Shown here one piece after another: positions 5,094-62,779 of a stretch of DNA of 64,000 nucleotides. Where the stretch lies: positions 17,608,001-17,672,000 of the forward strand of contig OX597842.1 in the NCBI GenBank assembly GCA_951406725.2, written 5' to 3'. The stretch is from Octopus vulgaris. Lineage: Eukaryota. Under the pieces are notes generated by a model that saw only the letters and a program-made list of their open reading frames with translations, did not search any database and had not been told where the DNA came from. A program made the translations under genes and the position numbers. Position 1 is the stretch's first letter. Each line of letters starts with the position of its first letter.

Positions 5094-5098
<5 letters not shown>

Positions 5099-6370
5099 AA
5101 TCAAGGAACGGCCATAATAGGCCATTCACCCACTAGAAATAACAGCCAAAGCTTTAACCGCAAAATAACATTAATTCCGTAAACCAGGAAAAAATTAAAA
5201 AAACATTTACCCTGTAATTTCTTATACGATGCACCGTTTCATCTACTGTTTAATGGTAAACCAACCTGATTAAATTAAATCAAGCCAATCTTCCATAGGC
5301 CTTTAGATTCCTCAGTAAGAAATAGCCAGAACGGAACAGATATTTTCACGATGCATTTCCGTCCCTGCCTCGGCAATATCTGACCTAAAATTTTCAAATC
5401 ATCGCACTCGCGCCAAATTTATCGGCAGCAAATAAATATAAGCCGCCGATAAATTTGGCGCGAGTGCGATGATTTGAAAATTTTAGGTCAGATATTGCCG
5501 AGGCAGGGACAGAAATGCCTCGTGAAAATATCTGTTCCGTTCTGGCTATTTCTTACTGAGGAATCTAAGGGCCTATGGAAGATTGGCTTGATTTAATTTA
5601 ATCAGGTTGGTTTACCATTAAACAGTAGATGAAACGGTGCATCGTATAAGAAATTACAGGGTAAATGTTTTTTTAATTTTCTCCTGGTTTACGGAATTAA
5701 TGTTATTTTGCGGTTAAAGCTTTGGCTGTTATTTCTAGTGGGTGAATGGCCTATTATGGCCGTTCCTTGATTGTGATGTTGAACTTATAAATGGTATATG
5801 ACTATTTAATTTTTTCCCACTAGGCCGCTGGTGGCAAAAAAATTCTACAAAATTTTTTTTGGCACCCTATATTGATTAATTATGAATTTTCTGGTTGATT
5901 CCGTAATGGAATCGGCGGCTTATATTTATTTGCTGCCGATAAATTTGGCGCGAGTGCGATGATTTGAAAATTTTAGGTCAGATATTGCCGAGGCAGGGAC
6001 GGAAATGCCTCGTGAAAATATCTGTTCCGTTCTGGCTATTTCTTACTGAGGAATCTAAGGGCCTATGGAAGATTGGCTTGATTTAATTTAATCAGGTTGG
6101 TTTACCATTAAACAGTAGATGAAACGGTGCATCGTATAAGAAATTACAGGGTAAATGTTTTTTTAATTTTCTCCTGGTTTACGGAATTAATGTTATTTTG
6201 CGGTTAAAGCTTTGGCTGTTATTTCTAGTGGGTGAATGGCCTATTATGGCCGTTCCTTGATTGTGATGTTGAACTTATAAATGGTATATGACTATTTAAT
6301 TTTTTCCCACTAGGCCGCTGGTGGCAAAAAAATTCTACAAAATTTTTTTTGCCACCCTATATTGATTAAT

Positions 6371-8649: not shown

Positions 8650-11600
8650 ATGGAAACAACAATTCAGTACCATCCGATTCTTCTTCTTCTGCCAGCTTTG
8701 ACACTTTTGCTTTTCGTGACTCTTGTAACTGCCGGAGAACCAACGTATAGAGATGGTCTCTTCAGAAAAACCACAACATCAAAATGCTTAACTGATCAGA
8801 ATAAAACTACTAAGTACGCGTCATCTCTTATAGGATGTTCATTTCGGTGTATTTCCCGCGATGAGTGTGAATATTTTACCTATTGTAATGGCCCGTGTTA
8901 TATGCATCGGTCGCTTCACAACGAAGAAATTAACGATCAGGATTGCACATGTTTATCGTATATTTTACTCTCCGGAAATAGTATGTAAATCACAATTTTC
9001 TGGCATATTTTTTCCATTTTCTGTATATTTTAATCATTATCCCAATTGTTTTACAAACGCATGCACACACACACATTTATGTATGTATGTATGTATGTAT
9101 GTATGTATGTATATTATTATTCAGTTTTTTTCAGGATTTGTTGCCAATAGAGAACGAACCGGTTTCTAACCTTAACCCAGGCACTTTCACTGGAATTGCA
9201 ACATCAACAACAGGGTATTTTTGTTTATAAGTTTTTATGTATGTTATGTATGTATGTATCTATGCGAAGATTTGTATGTATTATGTATGATTGCTCGCAA
9301 AGAAACGAACAAGGGACAACAATCAATGCAAGCTAACAAACTGTCCCATCCGTGACATAGATTTATGCCAACGGGTAAACTTTGTGTATAGAATACAATG
9401 TTACAAATGCAACAAGTGGGTAGTACAAAAAAACCGTTTCACGTCCGCATCAAAGAACATCTGAACACGATAGCCTCTTCCTTCAGAAAAGATGCCGGAA
9501 CACCGACAAAAGCATAACAGTCACACTTGAGCCAGTGAAAGAAATGTGGGTAATTTAAGAATTAAGGAAGCTATACTCATACGTAGACTCATACACTACT
9601 TATTATTTTAGGAAAGAATCCTTCCAGAATCCCAGTGTGTTATCCGATCATTACTTGGAACCATAGACACGATCTGCGCCAGACAATTCCAAAACAAGTA
9701 TCGAGAACAAGAAAACCACATTTTTCTTATCTTTTCTGATCTGCAAAAATTTTTTGATAGAGTACCAAGATCAGCCATATGGACGGCCCTTGATCAATTC
9801 CTTCTCCCTGATCATGCAATGGTATGATTGGACGTTTCCTTCCACGTGACGGACTCTCAAAAGAATTCCCAATTACATCTGGATTGAAACAAGTTTGCCC
9901 ACCCGTTACTATGCTTTCCTCCCGATACCTTCCTGCAATGATATATGAACTTCACTTGGATCAGCTGGGAAAGGACATCAGATATCGTTTTGATGAAAGA
10001 CTCTTCAGCTTGGTGAGGTTTCGGTCAAAGAATCTTACCAGTTCCAAGCGAATCTCAGAACTTCACTTCGTCGATGGCAACGTGGTCACGCGGTCACTCA
10101 AGCTTAGAACTGCAACGATCTGTCAGTTATTTCACCATTGCGTATCAACGTTTTGAGCTCACTGTAAATTCTAAGAAATCTCAGTTCTTCGCCTAATCAA
10201 TCCCGAATTCTGCCCTTCTGGATTTTAACATCATAATTTCAGGCACACCACTGGAACGAGTTAATCGCTTTGCATGACTTAGAAGTGTGCTTTCCAACAA
10301 ACACAATCATGAGCGAGATGTGGGACGAGGAATCGGAGCGGTTCACTCAGCTTTCTTTGAAATAAATAAATGTCTTTCCTGAAAAATCCTGGAAAATTCT
10401 GGAATGCACCTCCTTTTTCTTTAAAATCCTATTGGTGTCACAAAACTTTTGCACAGATATGACCGTCATCAGTTGAGGCTGGAGCGAAAGCTAAATTAAA
10501 TGCGCCTAAGCGTAAGCGGCCCTTATCAATGGGAGAAATCCAGTCGTAAATAGATGATTTAAACAGCGATGAAGAAGTGTTTTTCTGATTTTCTTTCATC
10601 ATCAAATAAAGCAGGTGATGTTGAAAATGATGTTTTATATAATATAGAAAAAAATAATGCTTCAACTAGCTCTGGATGGAAAAAGTGCACCGATACTTCT
10701 CCATTTGTTTAAGACCGACAAGCATTTTAGTTTTTGTGCTTAATTTAATGAAAATAAATATATAAATTAGCTTTATGAAAAAGAGATTTTTTCGATTATT
10801 GCCCGTTTGTCACACACATTCATGCAACCCTTTCCCGCCGTTTAAGGGTTTACATCTTGTTTGTATACTTACATTTTTTATTGCTGATACAGGTACAAGC
10901 TGGCAAAAAGTTTTTGAGATAACCCCAAACTCATTTAAGAAAAGCCCTATTTATTTGTACTGGGACAATTTGCCTATTGAAAAGGTAATGAATTTTTAGA
11001 ATTTCGAGATGATTCTCATTTGATAACCAATCTACATATTTGTTGCTGTTTTACAATAATTACTAGTGTTTTCTTTTAAATGTTTAATTTCAGTTTTTGA
11101 TGTTTGTTTCATTTTTAAAATCTATCTTTTTGGTTAGCAAGTTTCTTTGGCGGGTTTTCACGATAGAAGTAGATCCAGACTAATTTTCCTTCTAAATTTC
11201 AATGGAATATTGTGCAGCGTTTTCATTTGACGGCAAGAGTGTTGCTATAAATTATACACGACGCATAAAAACCTATTCCTCTCCTATTTATTTCTCCTTT
11301 TTTTCTGTTTCACTAGCGAGATTTGGGGACTAAGGTCCGGCCTTTTATTTAGATTTTTATCATTTTCGCCGTGTATCTGATTAAGGACACTGATCTTTGC
11401 TTTAATAAGGGTTTTGGAATTCAGCTTTGACTGCAATGATTTTATTACTCTCCTTGTGTACTCCCAATTGGTCGTTTGTTTCATTCATTTTTTATTTCGT
11501 CTGCTTTCAGTATTCCCAAGTACTTTTACCACTGTCCTTTCTCAACTGCTCCCATTGTTTGCCCATTTGGTATTTCAATTCCCTGGCTTCTTTCAAATCT

Positions 11601-12440
11601 TCCTCGTTTTATTTTCAATATAGCGCACTTTTCTATCCCAAATTCCATACCAACGTCATTTGAGAAAATGCGGATAATATTTACAAGATTTTCAAACTGT
11701 TTCTCATTTTTCGCATAAACTTTTGTATCGTCCCTGAAAAGGAGATGATTTATCTGACCATTTCCTTTAACCAAATCGTAAGCAATTTTCACTTTTCATG
11801 GCCAATTCGAATAGTAACGGAGATAAGCTATCACCTTGAAATATTCCACGTCTGATGTTCACTTTTCCGGGTTTTTATTTTTCTCCGATCATTTCAGTAT
11901 TCCAATGTTCCATACTTTCATTTAGCATTTTCTCCATGCTTTTTTTTTTGCTATTTCAAACCTGCTCCCTGTTTTACTATCTAACTGTGTGCTATCATGT
12001 CATACGCTTTTTTCTTATCTAACCATGCTACATTCACTCCTGCCAATCATATACCTCTGCAATTTCTAATTATCATTTTATCATCTAATAGGTGATCTTT
12101 TGTTGCCCTACTTTGGTTCCTGCATCCTTTCTGTTCTTTTGGTAATAGATTGTTACTTACCTGATGTTTGCAAGTTCCCTTTCAAGGGGTCCTTGACGCA
12201 TTAGCAGCGTTCGCTCGCTTGACATCCATGCAGGGGCGCGACCTTGCTGCAGGCAGTCGTCCTGTTGCACAGCGATCCTCTCTTCTTCTTCTTCTTCTTC
12301 TTCTTCTTCTTCCAATTCTTCTTCTTCTTCTTCTTCTTCTTCTTCTTCTTCTTCTTCTTCTTCTTCTTCCAATTCTTCTTCCAATTCTTCTTCCAATTCT
12401 TCTTCTTCTTCTTCTTCTTCTTCTTCTTCTTCTTCTTCTT

Positions 12441-12503
<63 letters not shown>

Positions 12504-57877: not shown

Positions 57878-60800
57878 ACAAACACACAGACACACACACA
57901 CATTTATATATGTATTCTATCACTCTATTATTTGTTCCAGTCATTTGACTGCGGCCATGCTGGAGTCCCGCCTTTAGTCGAGCAAATCGACCCCAGGACT
58001 TATTCTTTGTAAGCCTAGTACTTATTCTATCGGTCTCTTTTGCCGAACTCCTAAGTTACGGGGACGTGAATACACCAGCATCGATTATCGTGTGATGTTA
58101 GTGGCACAAACAAACACACACACACACACACACACTCACACACACATATATATATACGACGGGCTTCTTTCAGTTTCCATCCACCAAATACACTAACAAG
58201 GCTTTGGTCGGCCCGATGTTATAGTAGAAAACGCTTGCTCAAGGTGCCACGCAGAGGGACTGAACCTGGAACCATGTGGCTGGTAAGCAAGCTACGTACC
58301 ACACAGCCACTCCTGCGGCTATATATGTATGTATGTAAGTATATCATTATTCAGTTTATTTCAGGATTTCCTGCCAATAGAGAATGAACCGGTTTCTAAC
58401 CTAAATCCAGTCTCTTTCACTGGAATTGCAACATCAACAACAGGGTATTTTTGTTTGTAAGTTAGTATGTATGTATCTATGCGCAGATTTGTATGTTTTA
58501 TGTATGTATGCTCGCAAAGAAACGAACAAGGGACAACAATCAATGCACACTAACAAACTGTCCCATCCGTGACATAGATTTATGCCAACAGGTAAATGTT
58601 GTGTATAGAATACAATGTAACAAATGCAACAATTTCTATGTGGGTAGCACAACAAAACCGTTACACGTCCGCATCAAAGAGCATCTTAACACGATAGCCT
58701 CCTCCTTCTGAAAAGATGCCGGAACACCGACAAAAGCATAACAGTCACAATTGAGGCCAGTGAAAGAAATGTGGGTAATTTAAGAATTAAGGAAGCTATA
58801 CTCACACGTAGACTCATACACGAGACATTGCCGACCTCACGCACTTAGTGCTCTCATAATCAGTATATTCAAGAAAGGAGATAGAAAATCTTATGGAAAC
58901 CATCGTGTAATCTCGCTACTTATTATTTTAGGAAAGATCTTTGCTCCAATACCCTTGAACGACCTCCACGTCGTCGCAGAAAGAATCCTTCCAGAATCCC
59001 AGTGTGTTTTCCGAGCATTACTTGGAACCATAGACACGATCTGCGCCAGACAATTCCAAAGCAAGTATCGAGAACAACAAAACCGTATTTTCCTTATCTT
59101 TTATGATCTGCAAAAGGTTTTTTATAGAGTACCAAGACCAGCCATATGGACGGCCCTTGATCAATTTCTTCTTCTCTCTGATCATACGATGGCATGACTG
59201 GGCGTTTCCTTCCTCGTGATGGACTCTCAGAAGAATTCCCAATTACATCTGGATTGAAACAAGTTTGCGTACCCGCTACTATGCTTTACTCCTTATACCT
59301 TGCTGCAATGATCTATGAACTTCCCTCGGATCAGCTGGGAAAGGACATCAGATATCGTTTTGATGAAAGACTCTTCAGCCTGGTGAGGTTTCAGTCAAAG
59401 AATCTTACCAGTTCCAAGCGAATCTCAGAACTTCACTTCGTCGATGGCAACGTGGTCATTCGGTCACTCAAGCTTAGAACTGCAACAATCTGTCAGTTAT
59501 TTCACCATTGCGTATCAACGTTTTGAGCTCACTGTAAATTCTATGAAATCTCAGTTCTTCGCCTAATCAATCTCGAGTTCTGCCTTCTGGACTTTAACAT
59601 CATAATTTCGGGCACACCACTGGAACGAGTTAATCAATTTGCATGCCTTAGAAGTGTGCTTTCCACCAAACAAAATCCTGAGCAAGATGTGGAACGAGGA
59701 ATCGGACCGGTTCACTCAGCTTTCTTTGAAATAAATAAATGTCTTTCCTGAAAAATCCTGGAAACTTCTGGAATGCACCTCCTTTTTCTTTAAAATCCTA
59801 TTGGTGTCACAAAAAGTTTACACAGATATTACCGTCATCAGTTGAGGCTCGAGCGTCTGCTAAATTAAATGCGCCTAAGCGTAAGCGGCCCTTATCAATG
59901 GGAGAAATCCAGTCGTAAATAGATGATTTAAACAGCAATGAAGAAGTGCTTTTCTTATTTTCTTTCATCATCAAATGAAGCAGGTGATGTTGAAAATGAA
60001 GTTTTAGATAATACAGAAAAAAATAATGCTTTAACTAGCTCTGGATGGAAAAAGTGCATCGATTCTGCTCCATTTGTTTAAGACCAACAATTATTTTAGT
60101 TTTTGTGCTTAATTTAATGAAGATAAATATAAAAAATAGCCTTATGAAAAAGAGATTTTTTCGATTATTGTCCGTTTGTCACAGACATTCATGTAACACT
60201 TTCACGCCGTTTTAGGGTTAACATCTTGTTTGTATACTTACATTTTTTATTTCTGATCCAGGTACAAGCTGGCAGAAAGTATTTGAGATGACCCCAAACT
60301 CATTTATGAAAAGCCCTATTTATTTGTACTGGGAAGACAAGCCTATTGAAAAGGTAATGAATTTTTAGAATTTCAAGATGATTCTCATTGAATAACCAAT
60401 CTACATATTTGTTGCTGTTTTACAATAATTACTAGTGTTTTCTTTTAAATGTTTAATTTCAGTTTCTGATGTTTGTTTCATTTTTAAAATCTATCTTTTT
60501 TGTTAGCAAGTTTTTTTGGCGGGTTTCACGATAGAACTAGATCCAGACTAATTTTCCTTCTAAATTCCAATGGAATATTGTGCAGCGTTTTCATTTGGCG
60601 GCAAGAGTGTTGCTATAAAATATACACGACGCATAGAAAACCTATTCCTCTCGTATTTATTTCTCCTTTTTTTTCTTGGGGACTAAGGTCCGGCCTTTTA
60701 TTTAGATTTTCATCATTTTCGCCGGGTATCGGTCTGTATGTTTCTGTTTTTCGTGACATTTACACACGTGAGTTTCAGCGATTTTTCTACAACAAATTCA

Positions 60801-62461
60801 AAGCACATATTCCTCGAATAAGAACTTGGAGTGAATGATAAGGATTTTAACTTAATTGTCTGGCCCTTTTTTTGTGATTGCTTCAAGGGTTGGTTTAGTT
60901 TTGATACGGAACGTGTTTCGATGGCCGTATTTACACATGGAGTGAGAACGTTGGTTTCTGTAAACATTTGTAATACATTATTTATATGTGCCTAGCAAAC
61001 ACCTTTCCGCAGCAGCTGAACTCCTCATCTACTATTCCTTTACCGTTTCCTTTCTCATTGTCCATTTCCGGTTCAAGTCCATTTCGTTTTTTTTTCCGTT
61101 CCTATTTGATCCTTTATTCTCCCCCCGTGGTCCGGGATCATGTGGGCATGATTTCCCCATGCTTTTTTGTTTCAATTTTACCCCTGGTCGGGCTGCAAGC
61201 CCATTTGATCCTTCGTTACGCTGTCGTACTGTCAAGCGTCTCTCCGCTTTGTCATCCCTCTTTCTGGATTGTCAGCAAGTCCTTCCCTGCAGTCAGTATC
61301 TGAGGGAATTCAACCGTGTTTCGTGGTCTGCTACCACAACAGCTCCTTTATAGTATCCAGTTAGCTCAAGACATCATCAGGCGGAACCACGTCCGGTTTT
61401 GGCCCCTACTCCTCTACCGTTTTGACGTGGCGGGTCCCTCCTCTTTCGGGGGTGCCTTCAGCTCTGGTGTTGGGTTCATGTCTTCTTTCTTCTTCTTTCT
61501 TCTGTTCCCTGGCCTCTTCGATGTATCGTCAGCGAGTGTCAGCGGGCGACTGTCTTGCATTTTGAAAGGAAGAGGTGAAATGATGAAATTTAGGTCGAAA
61601 TTTGTGAATATGTAGATGGGGTAGCAAAAATAAGAATGCTTTTCCCTCGAGATGAACTTCAGAATAGGGTATAAAGTGACACTCCACCAGGGCCAAAGGA
61701 ACATGATGGACATACCAACATGAGTAGCTACTCTGGCCAGAAACTACTATCCCTCTGACATCCGTTCCACACTTCCATGAAAAATGCTGTTCAAATGTCC
61801 CGCTTCTTGACGTGACGTCACTTCCCCTTCCTTTCCTGATGTCTCCCTTCATTCCTCCACAGAATATCAATGTGACATTGTTGATGGGAGATTGATTCTT
61901 GTTGTTTTTACCTTTTGTTTTTGTCCCGGATTTTGTCAGGGTCTTCTACTTCCCACAGATGCAACGAAACTTTTTACAAAGACTCCGAAATCCCGACTCA
62001 TTAGTTATTAATCCGATTCTCTGTCTCATAAATCCAAACTCTTTCTCGCCATCTTAATCTTCCACTTCATTCGCTACTTTGTATTTCATCCTCTCACTTT
62101 CACTCCCTCCCTCCGTCTCCTCCTTTTTCACAACTTCTCTAATCTTTTTCTCTTTTACTCTGAAACTCTCTCACACTCTTCCTCCACGTTTCTTTATATC
62201 TCCTTCTCACCCTCCTACTCTCTTCCTATATAACAACCCAGTCCCCTTTCTCTTACCTCCCTTATTCTTTTAGATTCTTTACTGATCCGAGTCAACTTTC
62301 TGTTTTCAGGTGAAATTTCAGTTGAGCGGAACAATTCTAAATCGCACGTTTATTTTCAACGGCACGGAGCCGACTTCTACATCGTGGTTCAAAAAAAATA
62401 AAGTCATTTCAGGTCCAACTATCGCTTATTCACATTTAACAAGATTTACGTTCAATAACAA
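57424..62461 (+). CDS. Secreted PAN/apple-like domain protein, paralog 3 (partial); coding exons 57424-57754, 60262-60353, 62310-62461; exons 4-5 presumably beyond the window
   Basis: Exon 1 differs from paralog 2 at 4 aa. Exon 3 ([50 protein letters not shown]) is open, 152 nt, with ttttcag acceptor, AA/GTATGT donor and the same phases as the other copies. Confidence 0.8.
57925..58318 (-). mobile_element. tRNA-derived SINE in intron 1 of paralog 3
   Basis: Paralog of 31045-31437. Confidence 0.85.
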
Positions 62462-62779
62462 GTATGTATAAATTATCTTCTTACTCATTATTAACATCTT
62501 TAATGATTTAATGATAATAAAAATAATGATTTCTCTCATAGGTACAGAATCACGTATTTTAAGGCAAAGGTGAATTCGATTTTATTACTTACTTTATTGC
62601 TATTATTTTACCGACCCTAAAATAATGGAAGGCAGGTATGGCTTTGGTAGAATTTCCGCTGAAAATCTTAAGGGACGAAACTATCGCAAGGTATATTGCT
62701 TGGCACTTCACCGGTTCTCACACTCACCCAGTTCATAGTTGTAGTACTAGTAGCAGAGGTGGTAGTGGTGGCAGCGATG

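Follow-up and report, generated by a model that had tools for sequence, protein, structure and literature searches.

The window analysed here, 64,000 nucleotides of Octopus vulgaris DNA (contig OX597842.1, positions 17,608,001 to 17,672,000; all coordinates below are those of the window), is microsatellite-rich animal DNA in which masked self-BLAST reveals three tandem gene units. Exon 1 of these genes encodes a hydrophobic leader and a PAN/Apple domain, and exons 2 to 5 encode one further domain of about 130 amino acids. The picture that emerges is that of a tandem, copy-number-variable octopus family of secreted PAN plus C-terminal-domain genes which would have been remodelled by repeated unequal crossover and gene conversion. 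The two halves of unit 3 appear to have different histories, and in the simplest reading of the site patterns unit 2, and not unit 3, is the most recent recombinant.

An identity step along unit 3

According to the first-pass annotation, unit 3 is nearly identical to unit 2 up to about 60724, then switches to unrelated sequence, and from about 61540 resumes homology to the other copies at lower identity, intron included, with a very different exon 3. All of this could be reproduced, with the end of homology placed at 60730. Up to this point units 2 and 3 are 92.1-97.3% identical in seven 5' blocks of a gap-free three-way alignment (91% for 31023-33845 against 57903-60730 in the masked self-BLAST, gaps counted), and their first coding exons, comprising signal and PAN domain, are 96% identical at the amino acid level. 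The following stretch, 60731-61540, has no match anywhere else in the masked window. Beyond it, 61551-62034 is 72% identical to 13080-13553 and 71% to 35524-35994, and 62171-62411 is 69% identical to both 13727-13980 and 36172-36428 (masked self-BLAST). In the 3' block 61521-62486 (865 gap-free sites) identity is 94.2% between units 1 and 2, 72.1% between units 1 and 3, and 72.5% between units 2 and 3. The third exon of unit 3 shares 70-73% of its nucleotides and 39-42% of its amino acids with those of units 1 and 2. A uniform identity along the unit, which would speak against a difference between its halves, was thus not observed: it runs from 92-97% via none to about 72%. A 116-codon open frame across 60730, considered as a sign of continuity, was not significant (81/1000 base shuffles) and was dropped.

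That the two halves of unit 3 have different histories is supported by separate trees of the 5' and 3' halves, a check proposed beforehand, which turned out to be discordant. In the exon-1 tree (22 rows), units 1, 2 and 3 form one clade with the family members P0001 and P0002 (100/99). In the tree of exons 3 to 5 (27 rows), unit 3 groups with P0031, P0034 and P0057 (95/90; 'Z'), and units 1 and 2 with P0013, P0001, P0012, P0006 and P0010 (88/92; 'Q'); forcing the three units together is rejected (p-AU 0.0058, approximately unbiased test). The back tree omits P0002 and P0017, which have intron-derived tails, and unit 3 fills only 48% of its columns; the front tree omits P0031 and models with too little of exon 1, and the inputs P0001, P0007, P0012 and P0016 were trimmed. 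In O. sinensis the same front is found on both back types (P0001, P0002), and old front halves, 49-69% identical to the window units at the amino acid level, persist in the same family. The combinatorial diversity suggested earlier therefore holds insofar as the family shows several front/back combinations, whereas the idea that shuffling is selected for diversity is conjectural.

A step of this kind might also arise from an assembly chimera, a contig having jumped between paralogs at a repeat, and in fact both edges adjoin repeats and the whole stretch is spanned by none of the contig pieces listed. However, the identity step is probably not an assembly error. Contigs of four runs (X1, X4, X14, X15) of 24 were compared and 32 pieces examined: a 594-nucleotide contig of X15 covers 60369-60939 and bridges the 60730 edge, and a 595-nucleotide contig of X14 covers 61470-62061 and bridges the 61540 edge. 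A further contig (X4, 60701-60866) was not counted, as its 30 nucleotides left of the switch are one below the bar for bridging, and X1 gave no bridging piece among those listed. On the other side stand the interval 61290-61470, which is unbridged among the 32 pieces, and the observation that X1 and X4 show at 60335-60340 only the unit-1/2 form of exon 2, which is no proof that the other form is absent. The O. sinensis model P0002, which represents another assembly or copy, contains an exon 2 of the unit 3 type (identical at 21 of its last 22 amino acids); the 23 amino acids after it exactly match 61940-62008, so that this exon is tied to the divergent back half. Likewise, P0034 and P0057 have a young-like exon 2 spliced to a Z-type exon 3. 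Because P0002 joins the same two halves and contigs of other runs bridge both edges, a chimera is highly improbable.

It is also very unlikely that the back half of unit 3 is decaying or strongly selected rather than old. Such a reading would accommodate the low amino acid identity of its exon 3 to the 13 named members with a true exon 3 (33-49%) and to units 1 and 2 (39-42%), the fact that P0002 skips this exon, and the missing exons 4 and 5, of which tblastn with 56 proteins against the window found none after 62465 up to 64000, i.e., within 1.5 kb. However, the back intron of unit 3 is equally diverged (72%) while its front introns are at 94-97%, the frame and splice sites of exon 3 are intact, and the Z-type members P0034 and P0057 have open exons 3 and 4.

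Unit 2 as the simplest candidate for the recent hybrid

With respect to the question of which unit is the hybrid, the informative sites uniting units 2 and 3, units 1 and 3, and units 1 and 2, respectively, number 205:59:76 in zone A (46021-59137), 47:35:47 in zone B and 20:15:176 in zone C (from 61520), and zones A and B differ (p = 2e-5, chi-square test). Unit 2 groups as sister with unit 3 in its front part and with unit 1 in its back part, both relationships being about equally deep: unit 2 is 95.1-97.5% identical to unit 3 in seven of eight non-coding blocks upstream of zone B, and 96.3-99% identical to unit 1 in six of eight non-coding blocks of the back. Along the gene, the sister of unit 2 thus changes from one neighbouring unit to the other, and the divergence from both presumed parents is young and mostly equal (95-98% identity; three non-coding blocks at 91-94%). 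The inter-unit spacers are collinear in the masked self-BLAST, and two large repeat copies, R1 and R2 (Table 1), are mostly 95-98% identical in non-coding blocks. Both sister relationships of unit 2 being equally young, they would be accounted for by a single duplication of a segment made up of back half, spacer and front half. The earlier view of unit 3 as the mosaic is therefore not borne out; the youngest recombinant would be unit 2, and the scar apparently lies in units 1 and 2.

Several observations weigh against a single clean event. The remaining blocks between units 1 and 2 are lower (intron 3, 91%; start of intron 4, 94%), as is one block between units 2 and 3 (92%). No clean single crossover point was found in unit 2 but a patchwork zone of 1.6 kb, zone B, which is star-like instead of showing a clean switch. 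A run of unit-2-only differences at 32559-32599 (9/10 successive informative sites) would need a fourth donor, that is, a copy lying beyond the window that contributed a short tract. Applied to the whole region, the maximum-descent test is dominated by zone C; restricted to the 5' region, it yields p = 0.03, and a similar p = 0.017 with unit 3 as child, so that no single child is singled out. Because zone B is star-like and the unit-2-only run asks for another donor, one crossover is insufficient, and therefore more copies would have taken part. With regard to the crossover or conversion with a breakpoint in intron 2 proposed at first, recombination of tandem paralogs is the likely cause, but three zones take the place of the single breakpoint.

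In a separate observation, the PAN exon of unit 1 (8650-8980) carries a cluster of changes relative to units 2 and 3 (86-87% identity in one 150-site window), and its proportion of synonymous differences (pS 0.13-0.18) is above the divergence of adjacent non-coding DNA; this cluster is possibly a tract from another paralog.

With one of the two repeats removed, two genes are left whose fronts are 88-93% and whose backs are 72% identical. Past the switch point, units 1 and 2 run into a minus-strand reverse-transcriptase fragment of a long interspersed nuclear element (LINE). As relatives of this LINE extend about 350-400 amino acids past the motif where the fragment stops, it is cut on its 3' side in the middle of the open reading frame, and 3'-side truncation is unusual for LINE copies. 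The last 11 nucleotides shared before the switch have their counterpart in unit 1 at 11367-11377, in frame with the last recognisable codons of the LINE. Together, the cut LINE and the 11 nucleotides look like a microhomology join in the Q lineage, i.e., a scar of units 1 and 2. Because they would mark the join in the Q copies, the intron of unit 3 more likely keeps the older arrangement, and we lean slightly towards units 1 and 2 as the derived side at the switch. The join itself could have placed a Z front onto a Q back, or it could be a deletion within Q that merely limited later conversion.

Protein clues to the direction are weak or two-way. Four of four close Z copies (unit 3, P0002, P0034 and P0057) have one exon-2 residue (M) in common, and exon 2 of the Q-clade member P0012 is identical over 22 amino acids to that of the old-clade P0007. 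To the contrary, the Z-clade member P0031 from O. vulgaris has an old-type exon 2 (13-15/22 identical to the window units), and the PAN tail of P0057 is ambiguous, with 23/26 identities to old-clade P0005 as against 21/26 to unit 3. Moreover, exon 2 is identical at 19-21 of 22 positions between most young and several old types, so that both exon 2 and the P0057 tail seem too conserved to be decisive.

A competing history would make unit 3 the hybrid: an old Z gene would have lost its native front to a young Q-type one through a crossover or conversion that terminated in intron 2. The old-type exon 2 of P0031 and the P0005-like PAN tail on the Z back of P0057 are in line with it, as is the summed contig depth, which on the front exceeds that of the unique Z back sequence roughly 3-8-fold (a figure that is not copy number), and the cut LINE could be a simple deletion in the Q lineage that only set a barrier. 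We nevertheless regard this history as not very likely: the cut LINE and the microhomology sit in units 1 and 2, the residue common to the close Z copies and the exon 2 of P0012 point the other way, and the two different sister relationships of unit 2, front and back, are left unexplained.

No discrete transfer at all would be required if the fronts had been homogenised ever since the Q/Z duplication while the backs escaped after transposon insertions or deletions in intron 2 broke homology. The stepwise gradient (97%, 94%, none, 72%), the short patchy tracts in zone B and a boundary at non-homologous repeats agree with this; however, the old, unhomogenised fronts persist, and P0007 and P0017, whose contig equals that of P0001 and P0002 in length, have locus numbers consecutive with theirs. 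Homogenisation would therefore be restricted to the young clade, and as a complete account it is unlikely, although continuous homogenisation can be compatible with the explanation preferred here.

The best explanation as a whole, and in our opinion a probable one, is a three-step remodelling of the tandem family. In the old step, the back-half lineages Q (units 1 and 2) and Z (unit 3) split, as shown by about 28% intron divergence. In an intermediate step, suggested by 6-9% divergence, one front half, consisting of upstream DNA, exon 1, intron 1, exon 2 and about 380 nucleotides of intron 2, would have come onto both back halves. In the young step (about 3-4% divergence), genes resembling units 1 and 3 would have undergone an unequal crossover that duplicated 'back half + spacer + front half' and so created unit 2; we consider this quite likely. 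The exchange would end at 60730 because homology ends there, and hybrids would remain in frame because all copies have the same intron phases. Homogenisation might then spread the front PAN module while the back exons diversify.

Gene units, intron elements and encoded domains

Unit 3 has three exons within the window, and intron phases are identical across all three units (Table 1). The tiny upstream exon of the O. sinensis models was not located in unit 3. Exon-exon joints were absent among the best 15 of 314 joints in the contigs, no run being recorded as RNA, and two runs marked 'RNA?' cover introns.

Table 1. Positions of gene units, repeat copies and intron elements in the window
Feature	Position	Strand	Remarks
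Unit 1 gene	8650..15736	+	5 located coding exons; open frame of 239 amino acids; 'Q' type back half
Unit 1 coding exons	8650-8980, 10893-10984, 13882-14021, 14565-14674, 15690-15736	+
Unit 2 gene	30502..38135	+	5 located coding exons; open frame of 241 amino acids; youngest hybrid in the simplest reading
Unit 2 coding exons	30502-30832, 33359-33450, 36327-36472, 36996-37105, 38089-38135	+
Unit 3 first located coding exon	57424..57754	+	hydrophobic signal-like stretch and PAN/Apple domain
Unit 3 exon 2	60262..60353	+	start of C-terminal domain
Unit 3 exon 3, 'Z' type	62310..62461	+	frame open; AG/GT ends; phases as in units 1 and 2
Repeat copy R1	11378..32256	+	unit 1 back, spacer, unit 2 front; ends approximate, inside zone B
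Repeat copy R2	33846..59137	+	unit 2 back, spacer, unit 3 front
Zone B	59138..60740	+	three-way patchwork, site of exchanges; informative sites 47:35:47
SINE-like insertion, intron 1	57903..58340		units 2 and 3 only (unit 2 ~31023-31460); ends approximate
Reverse-transcriptase remnant, intron 1	58830..59730	+	in all three units; RVT_1, E 2e-7; ends approximate
Last shared 11 nucleotides before switch	60720..60730	+	candidate microhomology; 10/11 match unit 1 11367-11377
Unit-3-only intron block	60731..61540		low-copy 60763-60939; moderate repeat to ~61290; high-copy repeat ~61294-61647
Old homologous part of intron 2	61551..62309		69-72% to units 1 and 2; holds pyrimidine-rich tract
Intronic stretch, last exon in O. 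sinensis model P0002	61940..62011	+	23/23 amino acids identical past splice site
LINE reverse-transcriptase fragment, unit 1 intron 2	11367..12279	-	cut on 3' side at switch point
Same LINE fragment, unit 2 intron 2	33835..34752	-

The nearest relatives of the unit proteins are uncharacterised O. sinensis and O. bimaculoides proteins, and the window units share their exon layout with uncharacterised Octopus 'Apple domain-containing' proteins. Relatives so named in O. sinensis are LOC118768097-101, LOC118761432/3 and LOC118761632; elsewhere the family comprises LOC106867736 and LOC106879016 of O. bimaculoides and CAI9743531.1 of O. vulgaris. Exon 1 of units 2 and 3 is 91-93% identical to that of P0001 and P0002 at the amino acid level. 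The known relatives are automatic gene models, several of them truncated or mis-spliced, and none is identical to a window unit. Four O. sinensis models (P0001, P0002, P0012, P0017) terminate in stretches that belong to introns of the window units (14402-14485, 61940-62008, 37337-37468 and 9612-9824, respectively) and are either mis-predicted or real short splice forms. P0016 (O. sinensis LOC118764386) has one PAN domain followed by two tandem C-terminal domains, representing either another family architecture or a fused model.

Of the insertions in intron 1 first thought to be shared by units 2 and 3, the piece at about 57903-58340, presumably a short interspersed nuclear element (SINE), is indeed absent from unit 1 and has a very high repeat depth in the contigs, but the reverse-transcriptase remnant is present in all three units; the sister relationship of units 2 and 3 extends to about 59140, within this remnant. 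A Helitron-like insertion was not confirmed, as none of the three forward frames of 59800-60221 had a Pfam match. An element just before exon 2 (59720-60222, also at 10350-10850 and 32820-33320), likewise without Pfam match, may be what was termed Helitron-like; its right end in unit 3 resembles a piggyBac-type terminus. Pfam gave nothing relevant in seven of seven stop-to-stop frames at the junction and was blank in 17 of 18 read-through frames. Part of the old homologous piece of intron 2 is taken by us to be decayed and retroelement-like, and the labels Helitron, piggyBac-like, Penelope-like, RTE and R4/Dong-like are likewise tentative, some of them being adopted from the first-pass annotation. 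The contigs of X1 and X4 skip 95 nucleotides at 58821-58915, which points to structural variants among family copies in intron 1.

Outside the genes, the spacer between units 2 and 3 contains a 410-nucleotide direct duplication (41682-42091 and 43099-43509, 96%) around a large AAT/ATT microsatellite block. A 180-nucleotide piece (30115-30294) is inserted inside a TA microsatellite just 5' of exon 1 of unit 2 and is 98-99% identical to 24385-24564 and 50525-50704. An element at 5096-6370, found at unit 1 only, has a 460-nucleotide direct repeat (5421-5880 and 5911-6370, 98%) as well as a 355-nucleotide inverted repeat (5096-5450 and 6265-5911, 99%), and represents either a recent insertion of foldback-like type or an artefact of local assembly.

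Regarding the encoded domains, the Pfam profile PAN_1 scores 17.0 bits in unit 3 (E 0.005) and 19.8 bits in unit 2, below the curated cutoff of 21.4 bits, and has no match in unit 1. Folds were predicted for the family members P0005 (PAN) and P0014 (C-terminal domain), standing in for the window proteins. The P0005 model (predicted local distance difference test, pLDDT, 83.9) has a PAN fold: its best matches are PAN domains (Z 8.9, root-mean-square deviation 2.5 over 73 residues), and PAN/apple-type domains occupy the top 22 rows. For the C-terminal model of P0014 (pLDDT 90.9) similarity to H-ficolin is weak (Z 5.0, root-mean-square deviation 3.5, 112 aligned) and tied with TLDc (Z 4.7-5.0); the best Foldseek match, L-ficolin, is weak as well (E 0.087, template modelling (TM) score 0.47), and neither model has a Foldseek match at E <= 0.001. 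In the Atlas, the domain reaches TM 0.76 to a cluster automatically named fibrinogen C-terminal, under the bar for naming, and the Fibrinogen_C sequence profile has no match in 12 of 12 proteins scanned. In other molluscs similar C-terminal domains come after PAN domains. The family appears to encode secreted proteins with a PAN fold and a weakly fibrinogen-like domain.

Intron 1 lies between the two domains. Intron 2 interrupts the C-terminal domain downstream of the part encoded by exon 2, namely its first two strands and helix. As the switch is located in intron 2, between homologous exons, it does not qualify as exon or domain shuffling in the strict sense, in which a breakpoint between domains joins non-homologous modules. 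Domain reshuffling with two different C-terminal domains, as initially proposed, is therefore not the appropriate description: because the switch falls inside one C-terminal domain, both backs being paralogous versions of it, the event swaps most of one domain between such versions.

Fast-changing back exons and comparison with known systems

Between units 1 and 2, exons 3 and 4 differ at 41/250 nucleotides, in contrast to 3.7% in intron 2 (p = 2e-15). Aligned over 13882-14674 and 36327-37105, exon 3 is 85% and exon 4 82% identical, compared with 96-97.5% for intron 2, and the two appear as hypervariable coding exons. Non-synonymous differences (38/236) also exceed those in intron 3 (39/435; p = 0.005). 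On the other hand, the ratio of non-synonymous to synonymous rates (dN/dS) in exons 3 to 5 is 1.97 and, in this one pair, not significant against synonymous sites (p = 0.10). Judged from these substitution patterns, diversifying selection on the C-terminal exons is likely; an older converted tract may contribute to the excess. The contig depth summed in X1 and X4 is about 1500-2800 in most non-repeat front bins vs 260-730 in unique back bins; the values are not copy numbers, but the contrast fits a larger array holding fewer Z copies.

As to function, given the PAN module, the possibly fibrinogen-like module and the fast-changing back exons, a role as extracellular binding or recognition protein of varied targets, with the variable surface in the C-terminal domain, is the most likely candidate, which we rate at somewhat less than even. 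The wider proposal, a secreted recognition family with a PAN and a cut-down fibrinogen-like domain, diversified by germline recombination of exon 1, exon 2 and exons 3 to 5 and by diversifying selection on the back domain, is tentative, and so is the analogy that would make it a cephalopod counterpart of snail FREPs or of sea urchin Sp185/333. While the mechanism, unequal crossover and conversion, is a textbook one, the gene family appears to be undescribed: the literature search, which covered sources other than subscription journals and supplements, had among the papers listed none on the family, its locus numbers or octopus arrays. Its value lies in the family itself, young, copy-variable and mosaic secreted octopus proteins whose back exons outpace their own introns, as is typical of proteins engaged in an arms race over binding. 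Should this truly be a recognition family, it would offer a concrete candidate for a diversified receptor to cephalopod immunology, and its natural hybrids, with the same PAN domain and different backs, would separate the roles of the two modules. In practice, neither the gene models of this cluster nor its orthology assignments can be relied on.

Haemoglobin Lepore and anti-Lepore are hybrid genes that arose from unequal crossover between tandem paralogs. The octopus locus resembles them in that duplication of a gene-permuted segment appears to have placed an in-frame hybrid between the two parental genes; it differs in being repeated and layered, present in at least two assemblies and marked by a transposon at its boundary.

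Snail FREPs combine a fibrinogen domain with IgSF (immunoglobulin superfamily) domains; they too form a diversified family of secreted proteins in molluscs, built from two modules of which the C-terminal one is of the fibrinogen type (PMC7588048, PMC3313920). In contrast, the front domain of the octopus proteins has a PAN fold and is no FREP-type N-terminal IgSF domain, and the back domain is about 130 amino acids long with a weak fibrinogen likeness (Z 5.0 at best). Furthermore, the variable part of the octopus proteins is the back domain, and somatic diversification is not known for them.

The Sp185/333 genes of the sea urchin are clustered genes for secreted proteins that lie among short tandem repeats and show segmental duplication, conversion and hybrid genes, and an immune role has been reported for them (PMC5103432). 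Although the protein is unrelated and the immune role is one reported for Sp185/333, the dynamics suggested for the octopus family resemble the Sp185/333 pattern of duplication, conversion and hybrid genes (PMC5103432).

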